IMG/VR virus record: IMGVR_UViG_2531839477_000015
Coordinates: 1-18,808 of that record
Reading direction: 5' to 3' (one strand)
Length of the DNA: 18,808 nucleotides
Source: a virus
Taxonomy: Duplodnaviria > Heunggongvirae > Uroviricota > Caudoviricetes
Made by a program: the position numbers and the translations under genes. Shown here in pieces: positions 1 to 16,614 of this stretch. The notes beneath the pieces are model-generated. The model was not told the DNA's origin and made no database searches. It saw only the letters and a program-made list of their open reading frames with translations. The first letter of the stretch is position 1. Each line of letters starts with the position of its first letter.

Positions 1-1284
1 TTACTTCTTCGCCTCTGCAACCACTTTACTACCCACGCCGCGGTTATTGTATTCCCACATGCGGTTGTAGTTAGTGTCATTCAGATTGCGCTGTATTTCG
101 TCGTTATCATCTACGCTGCCGGTATTACCCGCAAACGGACGATTAGAGATCACCGCATCGGCCCACGGTTTAGCCGTGTTAAAACCTTCGTTGATGGCGC
201 TATCACGGATCACCACCTGACCGTTGGTATTGGCATCAACATCCAGCGAGCGGCCCAGTTGCGCCACACCATCACCGAAAGCATTGAAACGGCTGTTTAC
301 GGCGAGGAAACCGTAGTAAATGTTGGACAGCGTAGCCGGTGCAAACACATACGCTTCTTGCTGAGTACGTGAGTTCACCACGCGGAATTCGGTGTTATCG
401 AACACCACTGCGCCGCGACCAGAAACGATATCCACATCCCCTTCAATGTAGCTGTTGGTCACCAGCGTACGCGGCTGACGATTCGTTTCCAGACGGTTCT
501 GCACACCGCTGTTGGTGACAAAGAAGGTGTTCTGACGACCGAGAATGTTAACGTTGTTAATCTGTACCTGGTCACCATCAGTACGCAGTGCCACCGCCGG
601 ATGGTTACCTGCATCTACGCTATCGCCCAGCGTGTTTTCGATGGTCAGATTTTGCAGTTGCAGGCCATTGTTTTGTGACCAGAAGACCGCAGAGCAGAGA
701 ACACCGATACTGTCGCTGCGTTTGCTCTGGCAGCTATCGTACATATACCACGCTGGTTTACCTGGCATATATTTGCCGCGCGGGTTGACGTCGTGACGCC
801 AGTCGGCAGGGCTCATGCCACCATCAAGGGAAAGCCCAATCTTCACATCAATCGGTTTTTCACCTGTACCGTACAGAGTAATTCCACCCGGAGCGGCAGG
901 GACATATACCGTTCCCTGATACTCACCAGGCATCACGGCAATATACTGGCGCTTGTTGGTACGCTTGATAATTGCCGCATCTACCGCCGCCTGAATCGTG
1001 GTATGCGTTACACCTTGAGTGCCCGCCGGGCCGACAACAAAGTCAGGTTGCGCAGGCAGGGTAATCGGGGAAGGATTCCACGCTGCAGCACCTGGTGTCA
1101 GGGATGCAAAATAGTGTTGAGCATCGAAATTCTGCGCTTCTTTTGCCGACAGAATCGGGCGAGAAGAGGTACCAGGCGCGGTTTGATCAGAAGGACGTTG
1201 ATCGGGCGGGGTTGAGCTACAGGCGGTCAGCGTCACGCCAAAAGCCAATGCCAGCGCCAGACGGGAAACTGAAAATGTGTTCAC
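1..1284 (-). CDS. ybhC: YbhC outer-membrane lipoprotein (pectinesterase-fold acyl-CoA thioesterase); host gene flanking attB-lambda
   Basis: 427-aa ORF; GTG start at 1282-1284 with GGAG 6 nt upstream; signal peptide plus lipobox LTAC; recognised from memory as E. coli YbhC; stop TAA at 1-3. Confidence 0.9.
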   Translation of the reverse strand: MNTFSVSRLALALAFGVTLTACSSTPPDQRPSDQTAPGTSSRPILSAKEAQNFDAQHYFASLTPGAAAWNPSPITLPAQPDFVVGPAGTQGVTHTTIQAAVDAAIIKRTNKRQYIAVMPGEYQGTVYVPAAPGGITLYGTGEKPIDVKIGLSLDGGMSPADWRHDVNPRGKYMPGKPAWYMYDSCQSKRSDSIGVLCSAVFWSQNNGLQLQNLTIENTLGDSVDAGNHPAVALRTDGDQVQINNVNILGRQNTFFVTNSGVQNRLETNRQPRTLVTNSYIEGDVDIVSGRGAVVFDNTEFRVVNSRTQQEAYVFAPATLSNIYYGFLAVNSRFNAFGDGVAQLGRSLDVDANTNGQVVIRDSAINEGFNTAKPWADAVISNRPFAGNTGSVDDNDEIQRNLNDTNYNRMWEYNNRGVGSKVVAEAKK

Positions 1285-1418: not shown

Positions 1419-2489
1419 TTATTTGATTTCAATTTTGTCCCACTCCCTGCCTCTGTCATCACGATACTGTGATGCCATGGTGTCCGACTTATGCCCGAGA
1501 AGATGTTGAGCAAACTTATCGCTTATCTGCTTCTCATAGAGTCTTGCAGACAAACTGCGCAACTCGTGAAAGGTAGGCGGATCCCCTTCGAAGGAAAGAC
1601 CTGATGCTTTTCGTGCGCGCATAAAATACCTTGATACTGTGCCGGATGAAAGCGGTTCGCGACGAGTAGATGCAATTATGGTTTCTCCGCCAAGAATCTC
1701 TTTGCATTTATCAAGTGTTTCCTTCATTGATATTCCGAGAGCATCAACATGCAATGCTGTTGGGATGGCAATTTTTACGCCTGTTTTGCTTTGCTCGACA
1801 TAAAGATATCCATCTACGATATCAGACCACTTCATTTCGCATAAATCACCAACTCGTTGCCCGGTAACAACAGCCAGTTCCATTGCAAGTCTGAGCCAAC
1901 ATGGTGATGATTCTGCTGCTTGATAAATTTTCAGGTATTCGTCAGCCGTAAGTCTTGATCTCCTTACCTCTGATTTTGCTGCGCGAGTGGCAGCGACAGG
2001 GTTTGTTGTTATATGGCCTTCAGCTATTGCCTCTCGGAATGCATCGCTCAGTGTTGATCTGATTAACTTGGCTGACGCCGCCTTGCCCTCGTCTATGTAT
2101 CCATTGAGCATTGCCGCAATTTCTTTTGTGGTGATGTCTTCAAGTGGAGCATCAGGCAGACCCCTCCTTATTGCTTTAATTTTGCTCATGTAATTTATGA
2201 GTGTCTTCTGCTTGATTCCTCTGCTGGCCAGGATTTTTTCGTAGCGATCAAGCCATGAATGTAACGTAACGGAATTATCACTGTTGATTCTCGCTGTCAG
2301 AGGCTTGTGTTTGTGTCCTGAAAATAACTCAATGTTGGCCTGTATGGCTTCAGTGATTGCGATTCGCCTGTCTCTGCCTAATCCAAACTCTTTACCCGTC
2401 CTTGGGTCCCTGTAGCAGTAATATCCATTGTTTCTTATATAAAGGTTAGGGGGTAAATCCCGGCGCTCATGACTTCGCCTTCTTCCCAT
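1419..2489 (-). CDS. int: Lambda-type integrase (tyrosine recombinase)
   Basis: 356-aa ORF MGRRRSHERRDLPPNLYIRNNGYYCYRDPRTGKEFGLG...DKIEIK, recognised as lambda Int; adjacent to attL; 23-nt overlap with xis as in lambda. Confidence 0.97.
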   Translation of the reverse strand: MGRRRSHERRDLPPNLYIRNNGYYCYRDPRTGKEFGLGRDRRIAITEAIQANIELFSGHKHKPLTARINSDNSVTLHSWLDRYEKILASRGIKQKTLINYMSKIKAIRRGLPDAPLEDITTKEIAAMLNGYIDEGKAASAKLIRSTLSDAFREAIAEGHITTNPVAATRAAKSEVRRSRLTADEYLKIYQAAESSPCWLRLAMELAVVTGQRVGDLCEMKWSDIVDGYLYVEQSKTGVKIAIPTALHVDALGISMKETLDKCKEILGGETIIASTRREPLSSGTVSRYFMRARKASGLSFEGDPPTFHELRSLSARLYEKQISDKFAQHLLGHKSDTMASQYRDDRGREWDKIEIK

Positions 2490-2978: not shown

Positions 2979-3074
2979 ATCACTACCTCCAAAGCATGAG
3001 TGAGATGACAACGTAACATTGATTGGAGATTAACAATAGATTGCTGATGTAAAAGATATGTATAAGCTTCGCTT

Positions 3075-3707
3075 TCAAAGTGGAGGCTCTGGTAGCGGCA
3101 TCCAGTGTGACGGCTCACATACCCCCTCAACACCATTCATGTAAAAGAATTGAAATAACCCTTTACCTTTGTGAAACCCTACCATCTGCTCTTTTGTGTC
3201 TGAGCAATAAACCAAAACATCTTCTTCGCTTGGCATTCGCTCACTACAGCTTATCCAACCATCCGGAGTTACCGGAGAGTTGCCGGGTTCTTTAATGTGC
3301 AAGCGAGGCTCACCATCTTTTGGCTCAGGCCACTGGCGCTCCATGATAATCTTCAATTTATCTTCCATAGCAACGGTAATTTCAGCATCGCTGATGCCAG
3401 CACGGCGCTGTGCATCCCACAACAGAAACTGCATATCAGCCCACTCGCTAAGATCGTCTGGTTCGGCTGCGGCTTCCAGTGCCTCTTTTGAGAGATGTTT
3501 CAGCGGAACAATGGGGCCAACGCAGCCAAATGTGGAGTCAGACCATTTGGCATACTCGTGGCGAATCTGTTCGCGTTCCAGTGATGCCAGCGCAATTCGT
3601 GCCAGTTCTTCCGCTTCTTCTGCTGGCAGTACAACGTTGCTACCAGGTCCGTATGTTTCGCGCCACTGCTTGATTGTCAGTAGTCGCTCTTTGGTCATAG
3701 TGGTCAT
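3075..3707 (-). CDS. DUF551-like phage protein (hypothetical)
   Basis: Start trimmed to ATG 3705-3707 (MTTMTKERLL...) with AAGGAG upstream; C-terminus WISCSERMPSEEDVLVY...HWMPLPEPP resembles the DUF551 signature. Confidence 0.65.
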   Translation of the reverse strand: MTTMTKERLLTIKQWRETYGPGSNVVLPAEEAEELARIALASLEREQIRHEYAKWSDSTFGCVGPIVPLKHLSKEALEAAAEPDDLSEWADMQFLLWDAQRRAGISDAEITVAMEDKLKIIMERQWPEPKDGEPRLHIKEPGNSPVTPDGWISCSERMPSEEDVLVYCSDTKEQMVGFHKGKGLFQFFYMNGVEGVCEPSHWMPLPEPPL

Positions 3708-3708
3708 A

Positions 3709-4230
3709 TCACTCTCCTTTGATGCGAATGCCTGTTGCAATGCTGTTTATGATGCTGTCAGTGCATGGGGTAGAAAGCTGGGCATCTCCAGCAATTTTCA
3801 TGACCTCAACATCTGCATATCGAATACCGAGGTGTATCAGACCGGCTATGCCTGACTTAAGCCGAGCATTTTCCATAAATAGAACCTTTGCCCGCTGTTT
3901 TTCTGCTTCAAGCTCAACTCTCAGCTTCCCTACCGTTAGCGCAATCTCCTCGTTCTCCTGGTCGCGAGATTTGATGTATTGCTGGTTTCTTTCCCGTTCA
4001 TCCAGCAGCGCCTGCACTACTTCAGGGTTGAAAGCTGCGATATAACGAGCGTTGTTCTCTGCGTTGTTCTGTCCATCAAAGCCGGTCCATTTGATAACGT
4101 CTTCACATCGTTTATCACCAGGTGTATGCACCGCATATGTACCAGTACCAGACGAAATAAATGCGACCCATTCACCCTGTGTTGCCAGTTGCGCCGCCTC
4201 ACGCAGTGCCTGATAGTCAATCTTGCTCAC
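3709..4230 (-). CDS. Ead/Ea22-like protein
   Basis: GTG start at 4228-4230 with AAGGAGG 6 nt upstream; N-terminus SKIDYQALREAAQLATQGEW typical of Ead/Ea22-like prophage proteins; coiled-coil middle. Confidence 0.65.
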   Translation of the reverse strand: MSKIDYQALREAAQLATQGEWVAFISSGTGTYAVHTPGDKRCEDVIKWTGFDGQNNAENNARYIAAFNPEVVQALLDERERNQQYIKSRDQENEEIALTVGKLRVELEAEKQRAKVLFMENARLKSGIAGLIHLGIRYADVEVMKIAGDAQLSTPCTDSIINSIATGIRIKGE

Positions 4231-4522: not shown

Positions 4523-4980
4523 TTTTGCTCACCTTCCTGTTCTTCCAGAAAAATACGCATAGCCTCAAGCATCTCTTCGGTGTCATACGGAGACAGCTTG
4601 TCACGCAGGATGTGTTCAATGCTGTTAATGAACTTGCGGATTGCTTTGCGTTCAATTTCAGCCAGGAAAGCGTCGGTGGCTTGGGTTTCAGTAACATCAT
4701 CTTCCCATTCGCTAAACTCCTCACGACAAAAGTCATTAAATTCCTTCTCAGATTGCTTAAGCGAGGTATTTTCAGCAGCCATCTTCGCGCATTTAGCCTC
4801 AAGGTTATCAATCGTGATTCCAGCAGAACGACACTCCCGCAACGCCGTTTCCAGTTTTGATTCAAGTTCGCCGAACTTACGGACAAGATATTCAGCGTTT
4901 GTTTCGTTAACCTTTAAATCACTTGGGATGCATTTACCTTTCAGAAAACCATCCATCTCAATTAGTGTCATTTGTTTCAT
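4519..4980 (-). CDS. Hypothetical coiled-coil protein (153 aa)
   Basis: ATG at 4978-4980; stop overlaps the next start; charged, helix-prone sequence. Confidence 0.55.
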
Positions 4981-5141
4981 TTCTTCCCACTCCGCAACAT
5001 CGCATTCAGATATTTGTTGTCGTTAACAGAACCGAAACTCTTTCTTTTAAGCAATTCCTCTCTCGATGGCATTGGCTTTACGCGTTGGCGAATAATCATT
5101 TCTGCCGGAAGAATGCCGGGATTGTATGCAAGTCCTCTCAT
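4979..5141 (-). CDS. Small ORF (53 aa), translationally coupled
   Basis: Not in the >=60-aa track. ATG 5139-5141 overlaps the upstream stop (ATGA) and its own stop overlaps the next ATG; translation [54 protein letters not shown]. Confidence 0.35.
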
Positions 5142-5428
5142 GATTTACTCTCCACGAACTGGTCAATAGCCATGCTAAGTGACATACCTAAAGCTTCGAT
5201 ATGCTGCTGAATATCCTGTAGCGTCCGCGCCTGAGATAACAGAATTTCACGGTTGCATAACTCTTTAACCAGATGCTCAAACTTGCTGTAATAACCGATA
5301 CGGCTTAGTGTTTCTTTCCCTGCATTCTCGCCTTCTTTGATAATTCCTCTTTCGCTAAGAATCAGATCGTGTTTGGTTCCGGTAATAACGTATTTTCCGA
5401 GGTCGATGTTTAGCTTCATTGTTTTCAT
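5138..5428 (-). CDS. Hypothetical protein (96 aa)
   Basis: Start trimmed to ATG 5426-5428 ([14 protein letters not shown]...) with GAGGAA 8 nt upstream; the track's longer ORF would overlap the upstream gene. Confidence 0.55.
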
Positions 5429-5438
5429 TGTTAATTCC

Positions 5439-5732
5439 TCAGTCATTACTGATAGCGCCATAGCGTGAGCGGTAATTACGCAGGCGCGGGTCAATTTCAG
5501 GGAAGTGGGTATATGTGGCTTTGCGGAATGGTCGGATTGATGTCTGGTAAATTCGCTCGCGTTCTTTTTTCTCTGCAAGCCATATACAGTGGCGAAATTC
5601 CTTTTCATCTTTCGTTTCCTGCGGTAGAGACATTATCCGATCGTAGTTTTTTCTGAATTTATCCAGCACCTCCGATACGGAATTGCCGGAACAGCGGCGC
5701 GCGTCGTCCGCACCATACAGAGGCGCTGGCAT
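5439..5732 (-). CDS. Hypothetical protein (97 aa)
   Basis: ATG 5730-5732 with GGAG 6 nt upstream. Confidence 0.55.
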   Translation of the reverse strand: MPAPLYGADDARRCSGNSVSEVLDKFRKNYDRIMSLPQETKDEKEFRHCIWLAEKKERERIYQTSIRPFRKATYTHFPEIDPRLRNYRSRYGAISND

Positions 5733-5745
5733 GATTTTCTCCTGA

Positions 5746-6225
5746 TTAAATTGCGTGAATAGCGTGACGAGGGAATGGGAGAGTTACTGGTTCCTCGTCT
5801 GGGTAGATAGGTTTGTTATGTTTGTGCCACTCGACATGACATGACTTGCAGAGCCACATCACATCGGTTGGTTTGCTGTAGTCGCAGTGGTGCGCCTGTG
5901 GTTTACATTCTGATCCGCAGCACTCACATTGTGGTGGTCGGATTAGCTTACCGTCGCGCAAAAAATTACCCACAATGATGTGGGCTTTTCTTTTCCATGG
6001 GTTGCTCTGAATGAACCGCTTTTTGGCTGCGTTACACCGTTCTCTTCCGCGTTCCGATGATTGATATTCTCTCCTTGCTGATACTCGATGTGGCAATCCA
6101 GCGCGTTCTTTGTCGTATTCAGCCAGGCAAGCCCGGCAAGCGGCAGTTAATCCATCTCTGGATGCTCTTCTGATTTGAAAGTCCCTTTCTTCCTTCTGTT
6201 GATGGCATCTTGAGCAGACTTTCAT
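5746..6225 (-). CDS. HNH-family endonuclease with extra Cys pairs
   Basis: C-terminal CECCGSECKPQAHHCDYSKPTDVMWLCKSCHVEWH fits the HNH/zinc-finger pattern; ATG 6223-6225 with GGAG upstream. Confidence 0.6.
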   Translation of the reverse strand: MKVCSRCHQQKEERDFQIRRASRDGLTAACRACLAEYDKERAGLPHRVSARREYQSSERGRERCNAAKKRFIQSNPWKRKAHIIVGNFLRDGKLIRPPQCECCGSECKPQAHHCDYSKPTDVMWLCKSCHVEWHKHNKPIYPDEEPVTLPFPRHAIHAI

Positions 6226-6234
6226 ATTCAGCTC

Positions 6235-6708
6235 CTAGAACGGAATATCCGAATCGTCAAAATCCATAGGTGGTTCGCTGTGATTCCCCTGCTGCTGAGA
6301 TTGCTGTCTTTGTTGCTGACCGTTATTTCGCTGAGGTGAAGACTGTTCATTGCCTCCTTGCTTGCCACCAAGCATTTTCATGGTTCCACCAACGCCCACG
6401 ATGACTTCGGTAGTGAACCTATCCTGTCCGCTTTGATCCTGCCATTTTCTTGTCCGTAATTTGCCTTCAAGATAAACCTCTGAGCCTTTTCGCAGATATT
6501 CGCTGGCAATTTCTGCCAGTTTCCCGCTCATTACCACGCGGTGCCACTCCGTCTGCTCCTTTTGCTCTCCAGTTTGCTTATCACGCCATTGTTCTGACGT
6601 AGCAACTGTAAGGTTTGCAAATGCCGTTCCTGATGGTGAATATCTGATTTCTGGATCATGCCCAAGGCGACCAATAATGATCACCTTATTTACGCCTCTA
6701 CTTCCCAT
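6235..6708 (-). CDS. ssb: Single-stranded DNA-binding protein
   Basis: N-terminus [23 protein letters not shown]...TEWHRVV, Gln/Gly-rich linker and C-terminal [12 protein letters not shown] tail, matching SSB. Confidence 0.93.
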
Positions 6709-7416
6709 TTATGCCGCCTGTTTTAGTTCGTTAACTCTGATGTTCATTACCTGAACGCATTTAGCCTGCGCCTCCTCGTTGCCAGCCATTAATTGCCAGT
6801 CACGCTGATAACGCTCGATGAGTTTTTTCTTGTCAGTTTCTGTTGATGCATAATCGCTGAAGTCTTTCAGGATTTGTTCGCAGTCAACCGATGGAGATTT
6901 CTGGTTGGTATTTTCTGGTGATGGTTTGTTATCTGATGCTGGGATTGCCCATCCCGGCAGCGATGGAGGGAGCCAGTAAAATCCTGTTCCATCCTTGAGT
7001 TTTGCCCTGTGCCATCCCTGCTTTTTATCGAGAGATGTTTGTGCGAAACCTTCCTCAAGGTTATACAGATACCGACCGATTCCCCACTGAACGGCAGCGC
7101 GCTTCATTGCACCGGAACGACCACCTTTGACGGCTTCTACCTGCGTGTTTTCAGCAGCATCCCATTTGGTTACCCATTCGGAATCAATCTTGATTGATAT
7201 GCCGCATTCAACTCCGCCGTTGTTGGGAATATCGCGGTATTCATTGCGCCATCCTGCTTTGCCGCAAACATCGTCCAGGCGTTTCATGATTGCCCTGTTC
7301 GTGACATAAGCCAGCACCATAGCCCACACCTTTCCATCGCGTGTTTTACCGCTTTGCTGTATTCGCCATTCGATATCTTCAGGGCTGAATGGCTCATCGA
7401 ATTTGTTCAAATCCAT
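6709..7416 (-). CDS. Rad52/22-type single-strand annealing protein (recombinase)
   Basis: Motifs NRAIMKRLDDVCGKAGW and GGRSGAMKRAAVQWGIGRYLY match the Rad52-family signature; sits directly upstream of ssb. Confidence 0.75.
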   Translation of the reverse strand: MDLNKFDEPFSPEDIEWRIQQSGKTRDGKVWAMVLAYVTNRAIMKRLDDVCGKAGWRNEYRDIPNNGGVECGISIKIDSEWVTKWDAAENTQVEAVKGGRSGAMKRAAVQWGIGRYLYNLEEGFAQTSLDKKQGWHRAKLKDGTGFYWLPPSLPGWAIPASDNKPSPENTNQKSPSVDCEQILKDFSDYASTETDKKKLIERYQRDWQLMAGNEEAQAKCVQVMNIRVNELKQAA

Positions 7417-7424
7417 AATTCACC

Positions 7425-7595
7425 TCAGAATGGACACGGCCCAAGGAAATAACGCTGATTTAATACTTCGACTCGTGACAAATTAAGGCATACCCGCATT
7501 CCTTCGCGGTCGCCATTATGGCGATACCAGAGAGCTTTCTGCGTGTACATGCGTCTCTGTAACTTGCTCTCCTTCACTGTGGTTGCAAGTGACAT
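7425..7595 (-). CDS. Small ORF (56 aa), alternative reading of the region
   Basis: ATG 7593-7595 with AAGGAG upstream; overlaps the 7516-7672 ORF in another frame, so at most one of the two is likely real. Confidence 0.2.
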   Translation of the reverse strand: MSLATTVKESKLQRRMYTQKALWYRHNGDREGMRVCLNLSRVEVLNQRYFLGPCPF

Positions 7596-7672
7596 GAATA
7601 TCTCCTTCGTTACCGATTAAATCTTTCATCTGACGAATGAATTCTTCGTCTGACCAGTTATCTGTAAAACTC
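7516..7672 (-). CDS. Small ORF (52 aa), coupled to the kil-like ORF
   Basis: ATG 7672-7674 overlaps the stop of the upstream ORF (ATGA); weak Shine-Dalgarno. Confidence 0.3.
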
Positions 7673-7823
7673 ATTTCCTGCGATACCACGGAAGGTTGAT
7701 AGCTGATTTCATCGCTTTATTTGCTTCAAGCCACATTTTTGAATCACCAATAAATCTGGCTATTACTGCTTTGTTTTGTGCAGCACGAAGCACCTGGTGA
7801 TTGATGGCTATTTCATTGCGCAT
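7671..7823 (-). CDS. kil: Kil-like small protein (putative FtsZ/cell-division inhibitor)
   Basis: 50-aa ORF; segment IARFIGDSKMWLEANKAM resembles the FIGDEKM core I recall from lambda Kil; lies between cIII-like and the recombination genes as in lambda; GGAGG upstream. Confidence 0.4.
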   Translation of the reverse strand: MRNEIAINHQVLRAAQNKAVIARFIGDSKMWLEANKAMKSAINLPWYRRK

Positions 7824-7942
7824 AACGCCTCCAGTTGTTTCTTTGCTGCTCTGATTAATTGTTTAACTCGGCGTGATAATTCAGATTCGTGCGGGTAGAA
7901 AGCGGACATGACGCCGCTACCCGCGAACTGAAAGTGCATCAT
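7808..7942 (-). CDS. cIII: CIII-like protein (putative FtsH inhibitor / CII stabiliser)
   Basis: 44-aa ORF MMHFQFAGSGVMSAFYPHESELSRRVKQLIRAAKKQLEALCAMK; pattern M-x-[FY]-x-[IF]-AG ... ESxLxRRxxxLxR resembles lambda CIII; GAAGGAG 6 nt upstream. Confidence 0.5.
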   Translation of the reverse strand: MMHFQFAGSGVMSAFYPHESELSRRVKQLIRAAKKQLEALCAMK

Positions 7943-8017
7943 GGGTAACTCCTTCTGTTTGATTGCATAACGAAAACGCCTCGAGTGAAGCGTTATTGGT
8001 ATGCGGTAAAGCCGCGC

Positions 8018-8329
8018 TTAGGCGGCTGATGTTTCTTCTTTCAGGCTTTCGAGATATTTACGTGGGTCGTCGTAACATTGGCATTCGCTATACCAATCCA
8101 CCCAGCGATCAGTAAGCCCCATATCTGATAAATCTTCATCGGTAAGGCTCTCATCCCACATCTCAAGGCCGTTAGCATTGCAGTAATCAGGCTTGATGTT
8201 GTTGTCATACTGAAAGGCGTCATAATCAGCCAGTGCGTCCATCAGGCGAACACCCTCTTCAACACTTGCCACTTCTACAATGAACGGCTTCATAGGTACT
8301 TGCGGGATATGCCAGACACGTAATTTCAT
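8018..8329 (-). CDS. Hypothetical acidic protein (103 aa)
   Basis: Start trimmed to ATG 8327-8329 (MKLRVWHIPQ...) with GGAGGA upstream. Confidence 0.55.
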   Translation of the reverse strand: MKLRVWHIPQVPMKPFIVEVASVEEGVRLMDALADYDAFQYDNNIKPDYCNANGLEMWDESLTDEDLSDMGLTDRWVDWYSECQCYDDPRKYLESLKEETSAA

Positions 8330-8341
8330 ATATCCTCCGTC

Positions 8342-8370
8342 AAAAAAATTGCCCTCACATTGGAGGGCAA
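8342..8370 (-). terminator. Intrinsic terminator (tL-type) on the minus strand
   Basis: Minus-strand RNA UUGCCCUC-CAAUGU-GAGGGCAA followed by UUUUUUU; stem 8351-8356/8363-8368, U-run from plus A-run 8342-8348. Confidence 0.6.
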
Positions 8371-8430
8371 AGAAGATTTCCAATAATCAGAACAAGTCGG
8401 CTCCTGTTTAGTTACGAGCGACATTGCTCC

Positions 8431-8458
8431 GTGTATTCACTCGTTGGAATGAATACAC
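8431..8458. repeat. Inverted repeat (9-bp arms GTGTATTCA/TGAATACAC, 10-nt spacer)
   Basis: Perfect 9-bp inverted repeat directly 3' of the 156-aa gene stop; no U-tract follows. Confidence 0.5.
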
Positions 8459-8472
8459 AGTGCTTATTCGTA

Positions 8473-8943
8473 CTAATAAAACACCCAGTTTTCTGTTTCT
8501 TGGTTGTGTCCAAAGTTATATTCAATATCTGGTGTTGATGTATCAATATTCTTAATCCCATCAACAAGAGTTGATACAACAGCCAAATCTTGTTTGATTC
8601 TCATCAAATGGTATTTCTTCCGGCGCAATAAACTTTCAATGGCAAGTTTCTTCGTCGGGAACGCAAAAGATCTTTCTGCATTTTTTGCTACTTTCTTAAT
8701 TGCATATCTATTTCTCCTTTGTTTCCATTCCTGTAACCACTGATTTGGTGCTGGTTTAAAATTAACAATCCAATGCGCAGGAACCAACCATGCATAATGC
8801 TCTGTCTGATGAAAAGCTATATATTGAAGTGCGCATATTTTTATCCCATCTTCTTCAACTGTCGCCTGGAATCTCCAGAAAACAGGCATTCCATCATGTT
8901 CAGTTTCTGATTCAGGAAAAGGTACGCTCCATGATTTTGTCAT
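8473..8943 (-). CDS. Hypothetical protein (156 aa), N-proximal moron
   Basis: ATG 8941-8943 with GAGGTGA upstream; no motif recognised; a 60-nt sample (8701-8760) counts 37% GC versus 55% in a 60-nt int sample (1441-1500). Confidence 0.6.
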   Translation of the reverse strand: MTKSWSVPFPESETEHDGMPVFWRFQATVEEDGIKICALQYIAFHQTEHYAWLVPAHWIVNFKPAPNQWLQEWKQRRNRYAIKKVAKNAERSFAFPTKKLAIESLLRRKKYHLMRIKQDLAVVSTLVDGIKNIDTSTPDIEYNFGHNQETENWVFY

Positions 8944-8997
8944 ATCTCACCTCAAATAAGTGGTTTGCTGCGAAAATAAATCCGCTTAAGTTACCTG

Positions 8998-9135
8998 TTA
9001 TTTATCCCACCAAGTTCCGGATCTATCTATCCAGTTACACCAATCATCGACACTCCATTTTGTTGTGTCGCATTTTGGCAACTGGCATGAATATCTACCT
9101 TCTTTGTAAAGTCGGCGTTTGACTTTCTTGAGCAT
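8998..9135 (-). CDS. Small Cys-containing ORF (45 aa)
   Basis: Not in the track. ATG 9133-9135 with GAGGTGA upstream; translation MLKKVKRRLYKEGRYSCQLPKCDTTKWSVDDWCNWIDRSGTWWDK. Confidence 0.3.
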   Translation of the reverse strand: MLKKVKRRLYKEGRYSCQLPKCDTTKWSVDDWCNWIDRSGTWWDK

Positions 9136-9143
9136 GGCTCACC

Positions 9144-9449
9144 TCAATCGTAATAAGCTGGAATTGATTTTCCGCGTTGCTTCTGGCGGCCTGAACAAGT
9201 CACACCCATTTCACTGCGTGGCTTGCGGTAGTAAATACGGTTCTGTTTACGCTCGACTTCTTCTGCCTTCTTGCAGCGAAGGCTTCCGAGTGATGCTGCT
9301 TTATCTGCTCTGACGCAACCAGAGAGCTTTAGCGCAATTTTTCGTGCCAGTCGCTGCTCTTGCATTGCCTGTTCACGTTGATCCTGTCTGCGTGCTCTGC
9401 GGCGATTTCTGGCGTTATCGTCAGCCAGATATGTAATGACTACTGTCAT
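9144..9449 (-). CDS. N: Antitermination protein N
   Basis: N-terminal arginine-rich motif NARNRRRARRQDQREQ and C-terminus KPRSEMGVTCSGRQKQRGKSIP matching lambda N (...KPGERGITCSGRQKIKGKSIP); GGAGG 5 nt upstream; nutL lies in its leader. Confidence 0.85.
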   Translation of the reverse strand: MTVVITYLADDNARNRRRARRQDQREQAMQEQRLARKIALKLSGCVRADKAASLGSLRCKKAEEVERKQNRIYYRKPRSEMGVTCSGRQKQRGKSIPAYYD

Positions 9450-9557
9450 GTTGACCTCCGATGATTGACTTTGGCGGTGACGCGCCGGGTGCTTATCTTC
9501 CGGTTGCCGTCGTGCAGCTGCACTTCACGTCACCCCAAAACCAACTACTCTTTGGTT

Positions 9558-9598
9558 CCCGCATTTCGGCGGGACAATCCCATCAATGTTAAAGAGCC
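9558..9598 (-). promoter_or_regulatory. nutL (boxA GCTCTTTAACA + boxB hairpin CCCGC-CGAAAT-GCGGG)
   Basis: Read on the minus strand: boxA at plus 9587-9597 and boxB at plus 9558-9573; the boxB 16-mer is identical to the one downstream of cro. Confidence 0.7.
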
Positions 9599-9644
9599 TG
9601 CCAATATGTTCCGTTTGGCTACCAAACGTCCTGCTGATGGCTAA

Positions 9645-12047: not shown

Positions 12048-12193
12048 TGACAAAACCACTCAGTCCTTACCAGGACAAAATTCACAAACACATACTACGT
12101 GATCGCTTCCTGTCCAGCTTCAAGCAGCCTGGTCGATTCCGGGCTGAGTTGGAAAAAGTGAAGCTGATGCAGAAGGAGAAAGGTCATGAGTAA
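12047..12193 (+). CDS. Small ORF (48 aa), translationally coupled
   Basis: Not in the track. ATG 12047 overlaps the upstream stop (TAATG) with GAGGAGG 5 nt upstream; translation [48 protein letters not shown]; 3' end overlaps the O-like start. Confidence 0.4.
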
Positions 12194-13046
12194 TCTTGCA
12201 ACCGTAACACATTTAAGGCCTTCACAACGGCCTGTGGAGCGTCGTGTGGCAGAAGTTGAAGATGGTTATACCCGTCTTGCAAATGCCCTGTATGAAGAGC
12301 TTATCGGCGCAGATTTAACGAAAAATCAGAGCAAGGTTGCCCACGCCATATGCCGTAAAACATACGGCTACGGTAAAAAGATGGATCGCATCTCTGATAG
12401 TCAGTTAGCTCAAATTACCAGGCTGCCAAGACAGAAGGTAAACAAGGCCAAGAATGAGCTTATCGCGATGAAGGTTATCCTTCGCGAAGGCCAGCAAATC
12501 GGGCCTAACAAGAACATCGAGGAATGGCAAATAGAAGGGTGTCACTACTCTGGTGATAATGTCACTGCATTGGTGACAAAAAGTGTCACCAAAACGGTGA
12601 CAGCGCTGTCACCAAAACAGGGACACACAAAAGAAACTATTACAAAAGAAAAAAGAAATAATAAAAACACTATGTCCGAAAGTGTTCGGACGGAGTGTGA
12701 AAAATCACATGACCGTCACGAAGAAACCGACAAGGCATTCGAGGAAATATTCTGGTGTGCAGGCATGCGGAAAGCCGGGAAGAAAAACGCAGCTTCGGCA
12801 TTCAGAACACAGTTCAGGGAATGGCGTAAAACTACCAGGGGTACGGCAAGCGAGTTTGCCACGATGCTGGCAGAAGACATCGCATGCAGGAATGGTAAGC
12901 AGTTCGGATTCGACAGGTTGTTACCATCGAGCTACCTGAACGGTCAACGCTGGAACGACGAGAAGCCAGAAACTATTCAACCACAATCCAAACCATCATC
13001 CGCAATCACCGTATCGAAAACTGGCTACGTGTTTTTCGACAGGTGA
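12186..13046 (+). CDS. Replication initiator, lambda O-like N-terminal domain with unrelated C-terminal domain
   Basis: N-terminal region [58 protein letters not shown]...GPNKNIEEW parallels lambda O; iterons inside the gene; C-terminal half not O-like. Confidence 0.85.
12551..12672. repeat. Putative ori: iteron cluster plus AT-rich tract inside the O-like gene
   Basis: Six alternating copies of GGTGACA/TGTCACC-type heptamers between 12551 and 12622 (tggtgataa, tgtcactgc, ttggtgacaaaaa, gtgtcaccaaaac, ggtgacagcgc, tgtcaccaaaac), followed by the A-rich tract 12628-12672. Confidence 0.6.
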
Positions 13047-13153: not shown

Positions 13154-13648
13154 ATGATGAGCCTTGAAGTTGGAGAATATATACCTGGTTATGAGGGTAA
13201 ATACTCTGTAACCAAAGACGGTCGTGTTTATTCACATTTAAGAGGCAGGTTTTTGAATCCATCTCCGGATAACAAGGGTTATCTAAGAGTCACTTTGTGT
13301 TCCGATGGGATTCAGAAGACGTTAAAAGTTCATCGTCTTGTAGCTCAATTATTTATCCCAAATCCGTATTGCAAGCCAGAAGTAAATCATATCAACGGCG
13401 ACAAATCGGATAACGCCATTTGGAACTTGGAATGGTGTACCTGCTCAGAGAATTTAAAACATGCTTTTAGCATCGGACTGAAAAGCGCAAAGGGAGTTTT
13501 TAATGGTAGGGCAAAACTATCTGAAACTGATGTGATTGATATCAGGAATTCTGTTGGTATGAAACTAAGCGAACTATCCACTAAATACGGAGTGAGTGAA
13601 ATGCAAATTTCCACAATCCGCAGAGGAAACGCATGGAGGCACCTTTGA
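13154..13648 (+). CDS. HNH homing-type endonuclease (NUMOD4-like N-terminus, HNH_3 core, C-terminal HTH)
   Basis: YIPGYEGKYSVTKDGRVYS...HRLVAQLFIPNP...VNHINGDKSDNAIWNLEWCTCSEN; by-eye AT-rich; sits between the O-like gene and the primase-helicase. Confidence 0.8.
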   Translation: MMSLEVGEYIPGYEGKYSVTKDGRVYSHLRGRFLNPSPDNKGYLRVTLCSDGIQKTLKVHRLVAQLFIPNPYCKPEVNHINGDKSDNAIWNLEWCTCSENLKHAFSIGLKSAKGVFNGRAKLSETDVIDIRNSVGMKLSELSTKYGVSEMQISTIRRGNAWRHL

Positions 13649-15525
13649 GTCCATCAGAACTTAGCGACCTGCTTTGGGCGCAGGTTGACAGGGTGGCTCC
13701 GCACCTGTTGCCAAACGGCAAGAAAGAGGGGCATGAGTGGGTTGCCGGTAACGTCAACGGTGACAAGGGAAACAGCCTTAAGGTCAACCTTAGCGGCAAG
13801 AAAAAATGGGCTGATTTCGCCGAGGGAGACGGCGGTGACATGCTTGATTTGTGGATGGCATGTCGTGGAATTAACCTGCATCAGGCTATGCAGGAAGCGA
13901 AAGCATTTCTCGGTATCAAGGATGACGATCACCATTTCGATGCCAAACGTGAGAAGAAATTCTCCAGACCTGATCGCAAGAAAATCGCCCGCTACGTTAC
14001 CAGGACAGAATCCCATCTTGAGTACCTGCAATCGCGTGGCATATCGCCAGAAGTCGTAAAGCGCTACGAGGTTGTCAGCGGCAAGGTGTGGAATGGAGAA
14101 CGAGAACTGGATGCTCTGGTGATTCCGTACAAACGCGATGGTGAGTTGTTGCAGGTCAAGCGAATCAGCACTGAGCGCTCGGACGGGAAGAAAGTCATTA
14201 TGGCAGAAGGTGATTGCGAACCTTGTCTGTTCGGATGGCAGGCTCTGGACGCTGGCGTGAGGGCGGTTGTACTTTGCGAAGGCGAAATTGATTGTATGAG
14301 CTATGCGCAATACGGCATCTCGGCGTTATCCGTGCCGTTTGGTGGCGGGAAAGGCGCTAAGCAACAGTGGATTGAGTTTGAGTATCACAACCTCGACAGG
14401 TTTGAGGAAATATTCATCTCGATGGACGTTGATGATGTTGGTCGTGAAGCCGCAAGGGAAATCGCAAGCCGACTCGGTGAACATCGTTGCCGTCTTGTTA
14501 CTCTGCCGTACAAGGACATCAACGAATGCCTGATGAACGGTGTTACCGAGGATGAAATCTGGCAGTACATCGGCACGGCATCCTACTTCGATCCTGAAGA
14601 ACTCTACAGCGCGCGAGAGTTTTACCAGGACACTATCAACGCTTTCTACGGCAAGCAGCAGTATCTGTTTAATCCACCGTGGGAATCTCTGGCAGATAAA
14701 TTCCAGTTCCGTGAGGCCGAGTTGACGCTGGTCAATGGTGTGAACGGTCACGGAAAAACGGAGGTTGTCGGGCATATGGCACTTGAGGCAATGCGTCAGG
14801 GGGTGAAGACGTGCATCGCGTCACTTGAGCTGAAGCCTGGTATTCTCCTTAAGCGCCTTACCCGTCAGGCAACGTGCTGCAAGATGCCGCCAGTGCTGGA
14901 AATTGACTCTGCATTTAAATTTTATGACGAAAGACTTTGGGTGTTTGGCCTGACCGGAACGGCGAAATCCGACAGGCTGATCGAAATATTCGACTACGCT
15001 CGCCGCCGATACGGGATCCAGTTATTCATCATCGACAGCCTGATGAAATGTGGCATAGGCGACGATGACTATAACGGGCAGAAGGCGTTTGTTGACTCGA
15101 TTTGCGACTTCAAAAACAAAACAAACTCCCACGTCATTCTCGTTACTCACTCGCGAAAAGGAGACAGCGAAGAAAAACCAACCGGGAAAATGGACGTAAA
15201 AGGCTCTGGAGCGATAACAGACCTGACAGACAACCTTTTCATCATCTGGCGTAACAAGGCTCGCGAGAGAGCGTTACAGAGAGTTCAGAGTGGTGAAAAG
15301 ATGTCAGAGAAGGACGAACAGCTACTGGCATCTCCGGCATCTGTTTTGATGCTTGAAAAACAACGTAACGGCGAAGGTTGGGAAGGTGGCGTCCCGTTGT
15401 TCCTTGACGAGCAATCGCACCAGTTCCTGCAACTTGAATCAGGATCGCCATATAGCTACATCGCCAATATGCCGAAATCGGAATATGACGAGGCGTGGCG
15501 ACAGGAAAACGTGACGGAGTATTAA
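13633..15525 (+). CDS. Bifunctional primase-helicase (Toprim primase + DnaB/SF4-like helicase)
   Basis: 630 aa; Toprim-like VVLCEGEIDCMS; Walker A LVNGVNGHGKTEV; Walker B-like LFIIDSLMK; occupies the lambda P position. Confidence 0.85.
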   Translation: MEAPLSPSELSDLLWAQVDRVAPHLLPNGKKEGHEWVAGNVNGDKGNSLKVNLSGKKKWADFAEGDGGDMLDLWMACRGINLHQAMQEAKAFLGIKDDDHHFDAKREKKFSRPDRKKIARYVTRTESHLEYLQSRGISPEVVKRYEVVSGKVWNGERELDALVIPYKRDGELLQVKRISTERSDGKKVIMAEGDCEPCLFGWQALDAGVRAVVLCEGEIDCMSYAQYGISALSVPFGGGKGAKQQWIEFEYHNLDRFEEIFISMDVDDVGREAAREIASRLGEHRCRLVTLPYKDINECLMNGVTEDEIWQYIGTASYFDPEELYSAREFYQDTINAFYGKQQYLFNPPWESLADKFQFREAELTLVNGVNGHGKTEVVGHMALEAMRQGVKTCIASLELKPGILLKRLTRQATCCKMPPVLEIDSAFKFYDERLWVFGLTGTAKSDRLIEIFDYARRRYGIQLFIIDSLMKCGIGDDDYNGQKAFVDSICDFKNKTNSHVILVTHSRKGDSEEKPTGKMDVKGSGAITDLTDNLFIIWRNKARERALQRVQSGEKMSEKDEQLLASPASVLMLEKQRNGEGWEGGVPLFLDEQSHQFLQLESGSPYSYIANMPKSEYDEAWRQENVTEY

Positions 15526-15554: not shown

Positions 15555-15586
15555 AGGCCTGCAGGTAATCGCAGGCCTTTTTATTT
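15555..15586 (+). terminator. Intrinsic terminator (tR2-equivalent) after the replication genes
   Basis: Perfect 8-bp stem AGGCCTGC/GCAGGCCT (15555-15562 / 15571-15578), 8-nt loop, then TTTTTATTT. Confidence 0.8.
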
Positions 15587-15602
15587 GGGGGAGAGGGAAG
15601 TC

Positions 15603-16019
15603 ATGAAAAAACTAACCTTTGAAATTCGATCTCCAGCACATCAGCAAAACGCTATTCACGCAGTACAGCAAATTCTTCCAGACCCAACCAAACCAATCGT
15701 AGTAACTATTCAGGAACGCAACCGCAGCATTCGGCAAAATGCACGCCTTCACGCGATGCTATCTGAAATAAGTAAGAAGGCTACATATCATGGAAAAGCA
15801 AGAAATATTGAGTTTTGGAAGGGGTTATTCGTTTCTGGTTGGCAGATTGCAACCAACCAGCACCCTGAGATTATATCAGGGTTAGAAGGTGAGCTAATAA
15901 ACATCAGAGAGAGTACGGCGACTCTATCTGTAAAAAAAATATCCGAAATAATGGACTACATAGAAGCATATTGTGCCATGAACTCAATTCATCTTAGCGA
16001 ATGGAGGAATTATGATTGA
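15603..16019 (+). CDS. ninB: NinB (Orf-family recombination mediator)
   Basis: MKKLTFEIRSPAHQQNAIHAVQQILPDPTKPIVVTIQERNRS matches the lambda NinB N-terminus as recalled; remainder is a diverged homologue; the track start at 15585 is TTG. Confidence 0.85.
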   Translation: MKKLTFEIRSPAHQQNAIHAVQQILPDPTKPIVVTIQERNRSIRQNARLHAMLSEISKKATYHGKARNIEFWKGLFVSGWQIATNQHPEIISGLEGELINIRESTATLSVKKISEIMDYIEAYCAMNSIHLSEWRNYD

Positions 16020-16614
16020 GGTTTGGGTAGATATCGAAGGAATTCCATTTTATCAGGTTAGCAATAAAGGAAATTTCAGGTCTATTACGAGGGAAATTAC
16101 AGTAACATCAACCAGACAGAGGCCATATAAGAAAATAATTAATGGCACTAGCGTAAAACCATTCAAGTGCAAGTCGACAGGATATCTTCAAATAAAGGTA
16201 TACGGTAAGAAATACAGCGCCCACAGGATAGTTGCGAAAGCATTCTGTACAGGGTTCTGTGATGGCTTGGTAGTTAATCACAAAAATGGGCAAAGAGATG
16301 ACAATAGGGCTGAAAACCTTGAATGGGTATCTCATTCTGAAAACTCAAAGCACGGATATAAACAAAATGGAAGAATACCTATATCGCTAGGTAAATTTAG
16401 TGGTGATCATCCTGCCAGTAAAGCTGTTATTTCTACTGACATGAAAACTGGGGAGGAGGTTTATTATGAAGCAGCTATGGATGCTGTCAGAGAAGGATTT
16501 GATAGTTCGTCAATTAGTCGTTGCTGTAATGGCGAAAGCTCATATCACAAAGGAAGATTCTGGCGATTTGCAAATGAAACAATGAAAGCGAGATGGGGAG
16601 ATCGGGCTGCATGA
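16012..16614 (+). CDS. HNH homing-type endonuclease inserted at the ninB 3' end
   Basis: NUMOD4-like GIPFYQVSNKGNFRS and HNH_3 HRIVAKAF...VNHKNGQRDDNRAENLEWVSHSEN; AT-rich by eye; C-terminal KARWGDRAA equals the lambda NinB C-terminus as recalled. Confidence 0.8.
   Translation: MIEVWVDIEGIPFYQVSNKGNFRSITREITVTSTRQRPYKKIINGTSVKPFKCKSTGYLQIKVYGKKYSAHRIVAKAFCTGFCDGLVVNHKNGQRDDNRAENLEWVSHSENSKHGYKQNGRIPISLGKFSGDHPASKAVISTDMKTGEEVYYEAAMDAVREGFDSSSISRCCNGESSYHKGRFWRFANETMKARWGDRAA

Follow-up and report, generated by a model that had tools for sequence, protein, structure and literature searches.

The recombination module considered here is already known: Shigella phage Sf6 was sequenced in 2003–2004, the Erf-type swap, that is, an exchange between Rad52 and Erf domains, was noted in 2008 (PMC2629481), and the class was catalogued in 2025. 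The ES18 class combines an anti-RecBCD protein, an SSB, a nuclease and a single-strand annealing protein (SAP); it accounts for 25 of the 325 phages in Table 1 of PMC12315714, where the SSBs of Sf6 and ES18 are also named. In Sf6 (AF547987), genes 25–28 are an abc2 homolog, gene 26, ssb and an "erf-like" gene 28, and the GenBank record already remarks on 14 residues common to gene 26 and an SSB.

Related solutions are found in other phages. In P22, the genes are arf–erf–abc1–abc2, and the P22-type Abc2 neutralizes RecBCD (the role of Gam) and turns it into a resection nuclease (the role of Exo) (PMC5928155, PMC12315714). In HK620, the C-terminal tip of the SSB stimulates recombineering by the neighboring Sak4 (PMC5928155). 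The annealing proteins Rad52, Beta, Erf, and RecT form one structural superfamily (PMC12315714). In SPP1, gene 35 (RecT) is followed by 36 (SSB) and 36.1 (HNH) (PMC6316719); in T4, segG adjoins gene 32, the T4 SSB gene (PMC2988022).

The locus and its closest relatives

The DNA analyzed (hereafter the window) is the whole stretch of 18,808 nucleotides of the IMG/VR virus record IMGVR_UViG_2531839477_000015 (Caudoviricetes). The following features are considered:

6709–7416, minus strand: Rad52-type single-strand annealing protein (SAP), Sf6 gp28 type, 235 aa (ORF, PF04098, phrog_1097)
7009–7407, minus strand: Rad52-type N-terminal annealing domain of the SAP, aa 4–136 (Pfam limits)
6712–6948, minus strand: C-terminal domain of the SAP, aa 157–235, P22 Erf-like (BLASTP, predicted three-helix bundle)
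6235–6708, minus strand: phage SSB, OB fold, 157 aa (PF00436, TIGR00621)
5746–6225, minus strand: HNH-like (His-Me finger) zinc protein, Sf6 gp26 type, 159 aa (phrog_2340)
5746–5791, minus strand: 14-aa tail PVTLPFPRHAIHAI of the HNH-like protein, last 46 nt of the gene (blastn, translations)
5439–5732, minus strand: Abc2, P22-type anti-RecBCD or RecBCD-hijacking protein, 97 aa (PF11043, phrog_656)

An earlier reading made from the sequence only had described three successive genes within 5746–7416. The ORFs bear this out, being contiguous on the minus strand at 6709–7416, 6235–6708, and 5746–6225. The stop codon of the SAP gene and the start codon of ssb directly adjoin (TAAATG). The spacer between ssb and the HNH-like gene is 9 nt long, with an AGGAG that overlaps the ssb stop codon; the one between the HNH-like gene and abc2 is 13 nt long, with an AGGAG ribosome-binding site for abc2. 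From 7416 to 5439, the module shows an operon-like packing, with spacers of 0–13 nt and no unrelated genes in between. The context is that of an early-left operon, with kil (7671–7823) and gene 17 (8018–8383) upstream and the integrase downstream, while the replication module is encoded elsewhere in the window (O protein, 12186–13046; primase/helicase, 13633–15525).

A promoter and terminator scan of 4800–9600 gave no signal exceeding the shuffled expectation; the one promoter-like match, upstream of the module, is weak (9 of 12 positions; 6.9 ± 2.1 in shuffles). A hairpin at 5968–5985, inside the HNH-like gene, is at chance level when compared with shuffles. The PADLOC defense models have no match in the module or in the neighboring genes. 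Upstream of the SAP gene, the 56-aa ORF at 7425–7595, which carries the PHROG label "recombinase", was considered as P22 Arf and rejected (it has no Pfam match, and P22 Arf is PF17585); its tblastn matches are in HK97, HK022, and Sf6, with none in P22.

The region is 98.4% identical to genes 24–28 of Sf6 over 2551 nt; of the 5426 complete E. coli genomes searched, 1375 contain matches to it. Order and spacing of the genes are the same in Sf6 and in the window. Within the module there are only point differences, whereas the flanks are mosaic, the window having gene 17 of P22 as well as further ea genes. In ES18, the SAP, the SSB (SSB-1), and Abc2 are of the same sequence types, again contiguous and in the early-left operon. 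The nucleases differ, however: ES18 gp47 is HNH_3/T7 7.7-like, whereas that of the window is of the phrog_2340 type and without a Pfam HNH model. The possibility that gp47 is a homolog of the 159-aa protein was rejected (no similarity by BLASTP; gp47 belongs to HNH_3). As in the ES18 class, the four types of genes are present in the window in one contiguous early-left cluster.

P22 has the same operon position and an Abc2 that is 91% identical, but its Erf has a PF04404 N-terminal domain, SSB and nuclease are absent, and Arf and Abc1 are present. In HK620, as in the window, a cognate SSB whose tip ends in PF comes after the annealing protein, and Abc2 comes next; on the other hand, Sak4 is a RecA-like ATPase, the SSB is not of the bacterial type, and there is no nuclease (PMC5928155). 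With lambda Red, the locus shares the operon position and the logic (neutralize RecBCD, resect, anneal), Bet and the SAP belonging to one structural superfamily. Unlike lambda Red, it has no homolog of Exo or Gam, those roles being passed to the host RecBCD via Abc2, and it adds an SSB of its own as well as a protein of the endonuclease type. A small nuclease gene beside the SSB gene is found also in SPP1, but gp36.1 is an I-HmuI-like HNH protein with no homology to the 159-aa protein (PMC6316719). The position of segG beside gene 32 in T4 is similar; SegG, a proven homing enzyme, is a non-homologous GIY-YIG protein (PMC2988022).

The identities of the genes, their order and packing, the near-identity to Sf6, and the conserved pairing of ssb with the HNH-like gene are established. 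Very probably, the locus is the "Rec" (homologous-recombination) module that a P22-like or lambdoid prophage carries in its early-left operon, in the Sf6 version and of the ES18 class.

The annealing protein

The 235-aa protein belongs to the Rad52 family, as first proposed from the sequence. Pfam gives PF04098 alone (Rad52_Rad22; E = 5e-26, 91.9 bits for a cutoff of 20.3, residues 4–136), and Mgm101/RAD52 comes on top in the fold search. The domain search was also inspected for an assignment to a non-recombinase family, and there is none. The match to phrog_1097 has E = 3.5e-130; the homologs form 5594 clusters, with PF04098 in all of those listed. The Rad52-family motif already pointed out, GGRSGAMKRAAVQWGIGRYLY, corresponds to residues 98–118 (nt 7063–7125). 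Of the 21 positions, 19 do not vary among 37 homologs, and the segment K97–Y118 is nearly all invariant.

The AF2 model (mean pLDDT 82) has an N-terminal β–β–β–α topology. In a Foldseek search of the PDB, the top 17 matches are all Mgm101/RAD52, human RAD52 included (E from 6.7e-4 to 5e-2); the probabilities reach 1.0, yet the TM-scores are merely 0.21–0.44. Sequence and profile searches of the PDB with the SAP returned chance matches only. A WW-domain-like stretch at aa 129–164 was set aside (just E = 0.1–0.5 to PRP40).

The C-terminal domain resembles another protein. It is 63% identical to residues 134–205 of P22 Erf (BLASTP, E = 2e-30), with helices at 179–192, 196–209, and 214–234 in the AF2 model. 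The likeness to Erf is confined to these C-terminal 79 residues; at its N-terminus, P22 Erf carries an unrelated domain, PF04404. The label of ERF superfamily ("Erf-like") for the whole SAP was discarded: PF04404 gives no match at E ≤ 0.01, while P22 Erf itself scores 157 bits. The SAP is a chimera between a Rad52-fold N-terminal domain and a P22 Erf C-terminal domain, the latter being a putative partner-binding domain. Within the shared structural superfamily, the SAP is the Bet equivalent of the module.

The SSB and the HNH-like protein

The SSB matches PF00436 (E = 2.2e-38, 130.9 bits for a cutoff of 26) and TIGR00621 (182 bits for a cutoff of 53.95), and it is 61% identical to the E. coli SSB sequence used for comparison. 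It directly follows the SAP and ends with the acidic tip DDSDIPF (nt 6238–6258), as anticipated, with a free C-terminus before the stop codon. The partners of SSB bind the free C-terminal Phe of this acidic tip.

The third gene had been called an HNH nuclease. Its 159-aa product matches phrog_2340, "endonuclease" (2.5e-47), and contains a four-Cys ribbon (aa 4–33, nt 6127–6216), a helical middle part, and a C-terminal β–β–α core (aa 100–134, nt 5824–5928). In the alignment of the family, C100, C103, H112, H113, D115, Y116, L125, H130, and H134 are invariant and C126 near-invariant. The AF2 model (pLDDT 92) has strands at 110–113 and 122–125 and a helix at 127–136, so that the conserved residues, placed on the model, give the HNH signature CxxC...HH...(N/D)...CxxC/H-H on a β–β–α–metal core. 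In BFVD, there are 34 matches at E ≤ 1e-3, many of them called HNH or endonuclease VII (predicted structures, named automatically), and the top five Foldseek matches in the PDB are HNH enzymes (Cap5, PacI), at non-significant values of E = 0.66–0.99.

On the other hand, every curated HNH sequence model fails. The protein has no match in Pfam or NCBIfam or in sequence and profile searches of the PDB (chance PDB matches only). When the curated HNH models are compared with 48 homologs, only two touch PF01844, at E = 0.68. A transitive search through 147 distant members of the family reaches no Pfam HNH family at E ≤ 0.01. The name is supported only by the conserved Cys and His residues and by the predicted fold, and nuclease activity is a prediction from them. 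Domain searches of the protein and of 48 homologs contain no DNA-binding module of the NUMOD/IENR type. The family is large and phylogenetically widespread: at E ≤ 1e-30 it numbers 1,097 cluster representatives, and relaxing the threshold to E ≤ 1e-3 gives 68,350. The RefSeq annotation passes over the intact and conserved 159-aa ORF in all the E. coli genome rows that were looked at.

Abc2 and the proposed pathway

It had also been stated that no equivalent of exo, bet or gam is present. Neither the lambda Exo/RecE (YqaJ) family nor that of lambda Gam is matched by any of the ORFs that were scanned along the window, but the statement fails for the functions: Abc2, encoded next door at 5439–5732, would cover the roles of both Gam and Exo, as in P22, and the SAP that of Bet. 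The match of Abc2 to PF11043 extends over its full length (1–97 of 97; E = 7.2e-62, 206 bits). By analogy with P22, Abc2 is best described as a non-homologous functional analog of Exo and Gam. Because Abc2 would supply resection by RecBCD and the SAP is the Bet equivalent, nothing requires the HNH-like gene to stand in for Exo.

A pathway can be proposed on these bases. Abc2 would bind RecBCD (at RecC), as does the 91%-identical P22 protein, so that phage DNA is spared and RecBCD is made into a Chi-independent 5′–3′ resection machine. The phage SSB would then coat the resulting 3′ single strands. The Rad52 fold of the SAP would bind the single-stranded DNA, probably as rings, and then anneal complementary strands, while its Erf-type domain at the C-terminus is probably the contact for a partner; the likeliest candidate is the acidic tip of the SSB, by analogy with Red-beta/SSB and with Sak4/SSB of HK620. 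The outcome, judging from P22 and lambda, would be a circularized terminally redundant genome, repair, and a switch to concatemer-producing replication. The 159-aa HNH-like protein would be an optional fourth component and not a substitute for Exo.

That the SAP, the SSB, and the HNH nuclease replace lambda Red outright, with the HNH protein processing DNA ends and with no analog of Gam or Exo, is hardly tenable. The contiguity and tight packing of the three genes would fit, as would the lack of the Exo/RecE (YqaJ) and Gam families among the scanned ORFs. Long 3′ tails, such as those produced by Exo, are however beyond an endonuclease by itself. In addition, HK75 and ECP1 have SAP–SSB–Abc2 with the nuclease absent, and about three-quarters of the E. 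coli prophages with this SAP are without the HNH-like gene. What largely refutes such a three-gene replacement is Abc2, encoded 13 nt downstream; on the P22 model, it both counters RecBCD and provides for resection (PMC5928155). What stands of the phrase "in place of lambda Red", used in the sequence-only reading, is the position, since the module occupies the same early-left place as Red.

The HNH-like gene next to ssb

Among the 5426 complete E. coli genomes, 402 have the SAP gene and 99 the HNH-like gene; the latter is optional and occurs in about a quarter of the E. coli prophages with this SAP. In phage ECP1, the flanks are ~98% identical and a cassette of 447 nt, which starts at the ssb stop codon, is absent. 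A search for target-site duplications or inverted repeats around the cassette yielded short chance matches only.

When present, the gene has a preferred neighbor. The immediate upstream neighbor is an SSB or an SSB-tipped protein in 43 of 47 lineages of the family (lineages being defined by 60% clustering); in the controls, the figure is 2 out of 677 for other ORFs and 0 out of 39 for downstream neighbors. The pairing is repeated in species-representative genomes, with 23–25 of 26 members (score of at least 120 bits) and 1 of 31 relatives with the HNH domain alone. The paired SSBs belong to various families (phrog_44, 743, and 9002), and so do the annealing proteins (Rad52, ERF, Sak4). The HNH-like family sits right after ssb in about 90% of the diverged lineages, whatever the SSB, the SAP or the downstream gene.

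A short sequence also links the two genes. In relatives without the HNH-like gene, the 14-aa tail PVTLPFPRHAIHAI appears as a C-terminal extension of the SSB (15 aa) after ...DIPF. Across 76 IMG/VR loci, this extension follows the gene content almost without exception: ssb ends with DDSDIPF-stop in 23 of 23 HNH-positive loci, and with DDDIPF plus the extension in all 11 loci where abc2 directly follows ssb. One allele of the 14-aa peptide shows seven synonymous and no non-synonymous changes, which points to purifying selection. In the AF2 model, the tail is disordered (residues 152–159 with pLDDT below 50). From these sequence comparisons, PVTLPFPRHAIHAI looks like a portable docking motif: without the nuclease it sits on the SSB, where it would cap the IPF tip, and where the nuclease exists it is carried by the latter. 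Our literature search found no paper describing either the pairing rule or the rule for the 14-aa peptide.

Possible roles of the HNH-like protein

For a recombination role of the HNH-like protein, the argument is only one of guilt by association. There is about an even chance that it acts as an accessory nuclease coupled to SSB, which would nick or cut DNA at SSB-covered structures and feed ends to the pathway. For the family as a whole, we tentatively consider an SSB-coupled nuclease, possibly drawn to DNA that SSB coats or to the SSB tip, and forming with ssb a conserved two-gene unit in recombination and replication modules of phages. Staphylococcal phage 80alpha can reportedly do without its analogous HNH gene (PMC6316719).

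This dispensability would also suit a selfish, free-standing homing endonuclease targeting the 3′ ends of ssb (intronless homing) and with no role in recombination, which is the main alternative but rather unlikely. Several observations agree with it. The gene is patchy among near-identical prophages and comes as a clean 447-nt cassette from the ssb stop codon. The ssb tip differs systematically between loci that are HNH-positive (DDSDIPF-stop) and those with abc2 next to ssb (DDDIPF plus extension), and, between ECP1 and the window, the substitutions lie closer together in the last ~65 nt of ssb. Two more free-standing genes of the homing type (NUMOD4/HNH_3) are present in the window. The same slot is filled by an unrelated HNH_3 gene in ES18 and by the I-HmuI-like gp36.1 in SPP1 (PMC6316719), and there is a precedent in T4, where SegG cleaves the adjoining gene 32 (PMC2988022).

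On the other hand, the position after ssb is kept across HNH proteins that are 30–50% identical and at least three SSB families without nucleotide similarity. Homing families at such divergence are usually scattered over many sites. The HNH_3 genes of the window are indeed scattered, unlike the ssb-bound HNH-like family. As to co-conversion, ECP1 has the cluster of substitutions in the last ~65 nt of ssb, but two other loci compared (L035 and L036) have no high-identity tract and only ordinary mosaicism at gene boundaries. The 159-aa protein lacks the NUMOD/IENR-type modules that are typical of site-specific phage HNH homing enzymes, and it bears the conserved 14-aa tail of the module, under purifying selection.

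The SSB and the HNH-like protein could instead serve phage replication or counter-defense, with only the SAP and Abc2 acting in recombination. Some ssb–HNH pairs do occur in replication or nin-type contexts with no adjoining SAP: one locus (P0050) reads NinG, one further gene, an SSB-like gene, and HNH, and another (P0035) Sak4–Gp157–SSB–HNH–helicase. Besides, phage SSBs are known to trigger defenses of the host (PMC13402713). But the window, like most of its enterobacterial relatives, has the pair enclosed by SAP and Abc2 at distances of translational coupling, it has a separate replication module (O protein, primase/helicase), and no PADLOC defense model matches. A role restricted to replication or counter-defense is, accordingly, improbable.

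Implications

In practical terms, the locus offers one more pair of SAP and cognate SSB for trial in recombineering. Beyond the known module, the only lead is the coupling of ssb with the nuclease. Because partners bind the free C-terminal Phe, a capped tip, as in modules without the nuclease, would be expected to change the set of proteins that interact with SSB. The near-universal pairing of ssb with the HNH-like gene across phyla would point either to an unrecognized SSB-dependent nuclease step in the recombination or replication of phages or to a homing family specialized on ssb.

Genes of the recombination module

The sequence-only reading proposed a Rad52-type annealing protein, an SSB and an HNH nuclease in place of lambda Red. 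The three contiguous minus-strand ORFs are present as described, and a fourth gene follows them:

6709–7416, minus strand: annealing protein, ORF of 235 aa, PF04098
6235–6708, minus strand: SSB, ORF of 157 aa, PF00436 and TIGR00621
5746–6225, minus strand: HNH-like protein, ORF of 159 aa, PHROG "endonuclease" family
5439–5732, minus strand: Abc2, PF11043

The genes are spaced in operon fashion. The stop codon of the annealing-protein gene directly abuts the ssb start (TAAATG), the AGGAG of the HNH-like gene overlaps the ssb stop (spacer of 9 nt), and 13 nt separate the HNH-like gene from the fourth gene. The stretch 4800–9600 has a single promoter-like match, a weak one (9/12 positions) that falls upstream of the module; shuffled sequences yield 6.9 ± 2.1.

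The Rad52-family motif is located at residues 98–118 of the 235-aa protein, and the domain search assigns that protein to a recombinase family. PF04098 (Rad52_Rad22) is the sole Pfam family matched (residues 4–136, 91.9 bits for a cutoff of 20.3, E = 5e-26); there are 5594 homolog clusters, and PF04098 occurs in all of those listed. Sequence and profile searches of the PDB gave no match for this protein. With its AlphaFold2 model (pLDDT 82), the 17 best PDB matches are yeast Mgm101 and human RAD52 (best E = 6.7e-4, with low TM-scores). Residues 157–235 are 63% identical to the C-terminus of P22 Erf (E = 2e-30), the N-terminal domain of which belongs to the ERF family and is unrelated to the Rad52-type N-terminus present here. 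The annealing protein is thus a domain chimera, with a Rad52-type N-terminus and an Erf-type C-terminus, and its widespread "Erf-like" label stems from the latter. The same swap was reported earlier for phage epsilon34 (PMC2629481). The Erf-type three-helix domain is likely the partner-binding part. Between the two domains, residues 126–164 are confidently predicted to form a three-stranded beta unit, with invariant W148, P151, L153, P154, W156, and P159, that faintly resembles WW domains (PRP40, E = 0.1–0.5).

By its sequence, the 157-aa protein is a bacterial-type SSB (PF00436, E = 2.2e-38; TIGR00621, 182 bits; 61% identity to E. coli SSB), and it terminates with the acidic DDSDIPF. The product of the fourth gene matches PF11043 (E = 7e-62) and is 91% identical to the characterized P22 Abc2. 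The sequence-only reading had overlooked this gene: its gene identities stand, but its statement that no exo, bet, or gam equivalent is present does not. Abc2 binds RecBCD and turns it to resection, which makes ends ready for the annealing protein (PMC5928155, with reference to Murphy 2000; PMC12315714); Abc2 and host RecBCD would thus cover the roles of lambda Gam and Exo. In HK620, recombineering is stimulated by the neighboring SSB via its C-terminal tip (PMC5928155); by analogy, the SSB of the module most likely works in the same way.

A known module in a lambdoid prophage

A 2551-nt region is 98.4% identical to genes 24–28 of Shigella phage Sf6, and among 5426 complete E. coli genomes, 1375 contain portions of it. 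A survey from 2025, covering 325 lambdoid phages, treats Rec modules as sets drawn from four functions (SSB, nuclease, annealing protein, anti-RecBCD), all of which occur together in the ES18 class (25 phages); the Sf6 and ES18 SSBs are named there, and the HNH and DnaQ-type nucleases of this slot are discussed with a caveat on HNH mobility (PMC12315714). Given the near-identity to Sf6 and the published ES18 class, this is a known, common module. Other features of the window are:

1–1284, minus strand: pectinesterase-like ORF, continuing past the left end
1419–2489, minus strand: lambda-type integrase (arm-binding domain), adjoining the pectinesterase-like ORF
3075–3740, minus strand: dATP/dGTP pyrophosphohydrolase domain (PF04447) and DUF551 in one ORF, ea region of the early-left operon
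7425–7595, minus strand: ORF of 56 aa, adjoining the annealing-protein gene on its upstream side, PHROG label "recombinase"
15585–16019, plus strand: NinB/Orf recombination mediator, nin region
16593–17138, plus strand: Dam-type adenine methyltransferase, nin region
17862–18224, plus strand: RusA Holliday-junction resolvase, nin region

With NinB/Orf and RusA encoded in the nin region, the recombination toolkit of the prophage reaches past the early-left module; as mediator and junction resolvase are supplied from there, resolution does not require the HNH-like protein. The pectinesterase-like ORF beside the integrase, a junction found also at another locus (L011), suggests a prophage at the ybhC-side attachment site of E. 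coli, the site used by lambda. The 56-aa ORF has no Pfam match, is not P22 Arf, and recurs in HK97 and HK022, phages whose recombination systems are of other kinds; its "recombinase" label seems unfounded.

The HNH label of the 159-aa protein

The PHROG family labeled "endonuclease" matches the 159-aa protein (2.5e-47). Residues C100, C103, H112, H113, D115, H130, and H134 are invariant in its family, which has an N-terminal four-Cys ribbon. In a confident model (pLDDT 92) the conserved Cys, His, and Asp fall on a beta-beta-alpha unit, and 34 predicted viral structures match at E ≤ 1e-3, many of them called HNH or endonuclease VII. On the other hand, the protein has no match among the sequence models of Pfam, NCBIfam, or the PDB, its 48 close and 147 more distant homologs yield no HNH-clan match at a meaningful E-value, and among solved structures the HNH enzymes Cap5 and PacI rank first at a nonsignificant E of about 0.7. 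We thus call the protein probably HNH-like (His-Me finger) rather than an established member of the family.

Association of the HNH-like gene with ssb

The family counts 1097 representatives at E ≤ 1e-30. Among ten diverged homologs (39%–55% identity), eight have an SSB directly upstream, from several PHROG families, preceded by annealing proteins of Rad52, ERF, or Sak4 type. We surveyed neighbors at 92 loci (80 from IMG/VR), with HNH-like proteins clustered at 60% identity, and scored pairing when the immediate upstream same-strand neighbor was an SSB homolog or ended in an acidic [DE]..[IVLM]P[FW] tip. Pairing occurs in 43 of 47 evaluable lineages (91%), against 2/677 other ORFs and 0/39 downstream neighbors; in two of the four unpaired lineages the neighbor looks like an ssb gene with a frameshift. 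Spacers have a median of ∼16 nt. In a separate sample of species-representative genomes, 23–25 of 26 members at ≥120 bits are paired (hand count from the per-locus table), ranging from Enterobacterales to Campylobacterota, Cyanobacteria, and Bacteroidota, while relatives with just the HNH domain in common are paired in only 1/31. We found no statement of this rule in the literature searched.

Such deep conservation across unrelated SSB families argues for a nuclease that may be functionally coupled to SSB. The genes may also be a homing endonuclease family specialized on ssb, as favored by their patchy presence and clean cassette ends, by the T4 segG/gene 32 precedent (PMC2988022), and by the dispensability of the 80alpha HNH (PMC6316719). 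Two more of the three HNH-type genes in the 18.8-kb window point the same way, both free-standing endonuclease genes of homing type (NUMOD4 and HNH_3, I-HmuI-like):

13154–13648, plus strand: flanked by the O replication gene and the primase/helicase gene
16012–16614, plus strand: between ninB and dam

The cassette site and its travelling tail

Between ssb and abc2 lies a cassette site.

Contents of the ssb–abc2 slot
HK75, ECP1: empty
mEp235: DnaQ-like 3′-5′ exonuclease
Window, Sf6, IME10, E. coli E41: HNH-like gene
Bas106: HNH-like gene and exonuclease together
ES18: HNH_3 gene, unrelated to the HNH-like gene

The window differs from ECP1 by a clean 447-nt indel that has the ssb stop codon as its starting point. 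A co-conversion test for homing gave mixed signals: relative to ECP1, substitutions crowd into roughly the final 65 nt of ssb, but loci L035 and L036 show no tract of high identity. Of the complete E. coli genomes, 402 carry the annealing-protein gene and 99 the HNH-like gene. The intact, conserved 159-aa ORF is unannotated by RefSeq (PGAP) in all E. coli records inspected (E41 and the best 8 of 102 matching records, from 99 genomes), and likewise in IME10, where its DNA is present. At one E. coli locus (L012, GCA_019436465.1), an HNH_3 gene (3060–3527) has inserted upstream of ssb, separating it from the Rad52-type annealing-protein gene, and a gene of the window's HNH-like type (phrog_2340) follows ssb, which there has an HNH gene on either side, the two being unrelated. 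Public assemblies contain a few rare hybrid ORFs (homologs P0011, P0014, P0024, P0053, P0060, and P0063). Some combine SSB with the C-terminal half of the HNH-like protein; in others, the N-terminal zinc ribbon of the latter is fused to the C-terminus of the DnaQ-like exonuclease. Both kinds resemble products of deletion in decaying prophages.

The HNH-like gene ends in 46 nt (5746–5791, minus strand) that encode a 14-aa C-terminal tail, PVTLPFPRHAIHAI. In relatives devoid of that gene (HK75, ECP1, mEp235), the same sequence forms a 15-aa extension of SSB past ...DDDIPF. Of the 76 IMG/VR loci compared, all with related ssb genes, SSB ends in DDSDIPF-stop in 23/23 with the HNH-like gene, and the extension is present in 11/11 with abc2 directly after ssb and in 26/28 with the DnaQ exonuclease there. 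One allele has an identical tail peptide with seven synonymous and no nonsynonymous changes, and the divergent alleles APIGLPYPRHAIYVI and SPVTLPFPRHTIHVI retain the pattern; the tail is thus conserved as a peptide and not as DNA alone, and the sequences indicate purifying selection on it. The Sf6 GenBank record mentions 14 residues in common, without interpretation. The tail is disordered in the model of the HNH-like protein, which would fit a short linear docking motif. Partners of SSB normally bind its free C-terminal Phe, which the 15-aa extension would cap. The migrating tail and the coupling of the HNH-like gene to ssb are the only leads of experimental worth.
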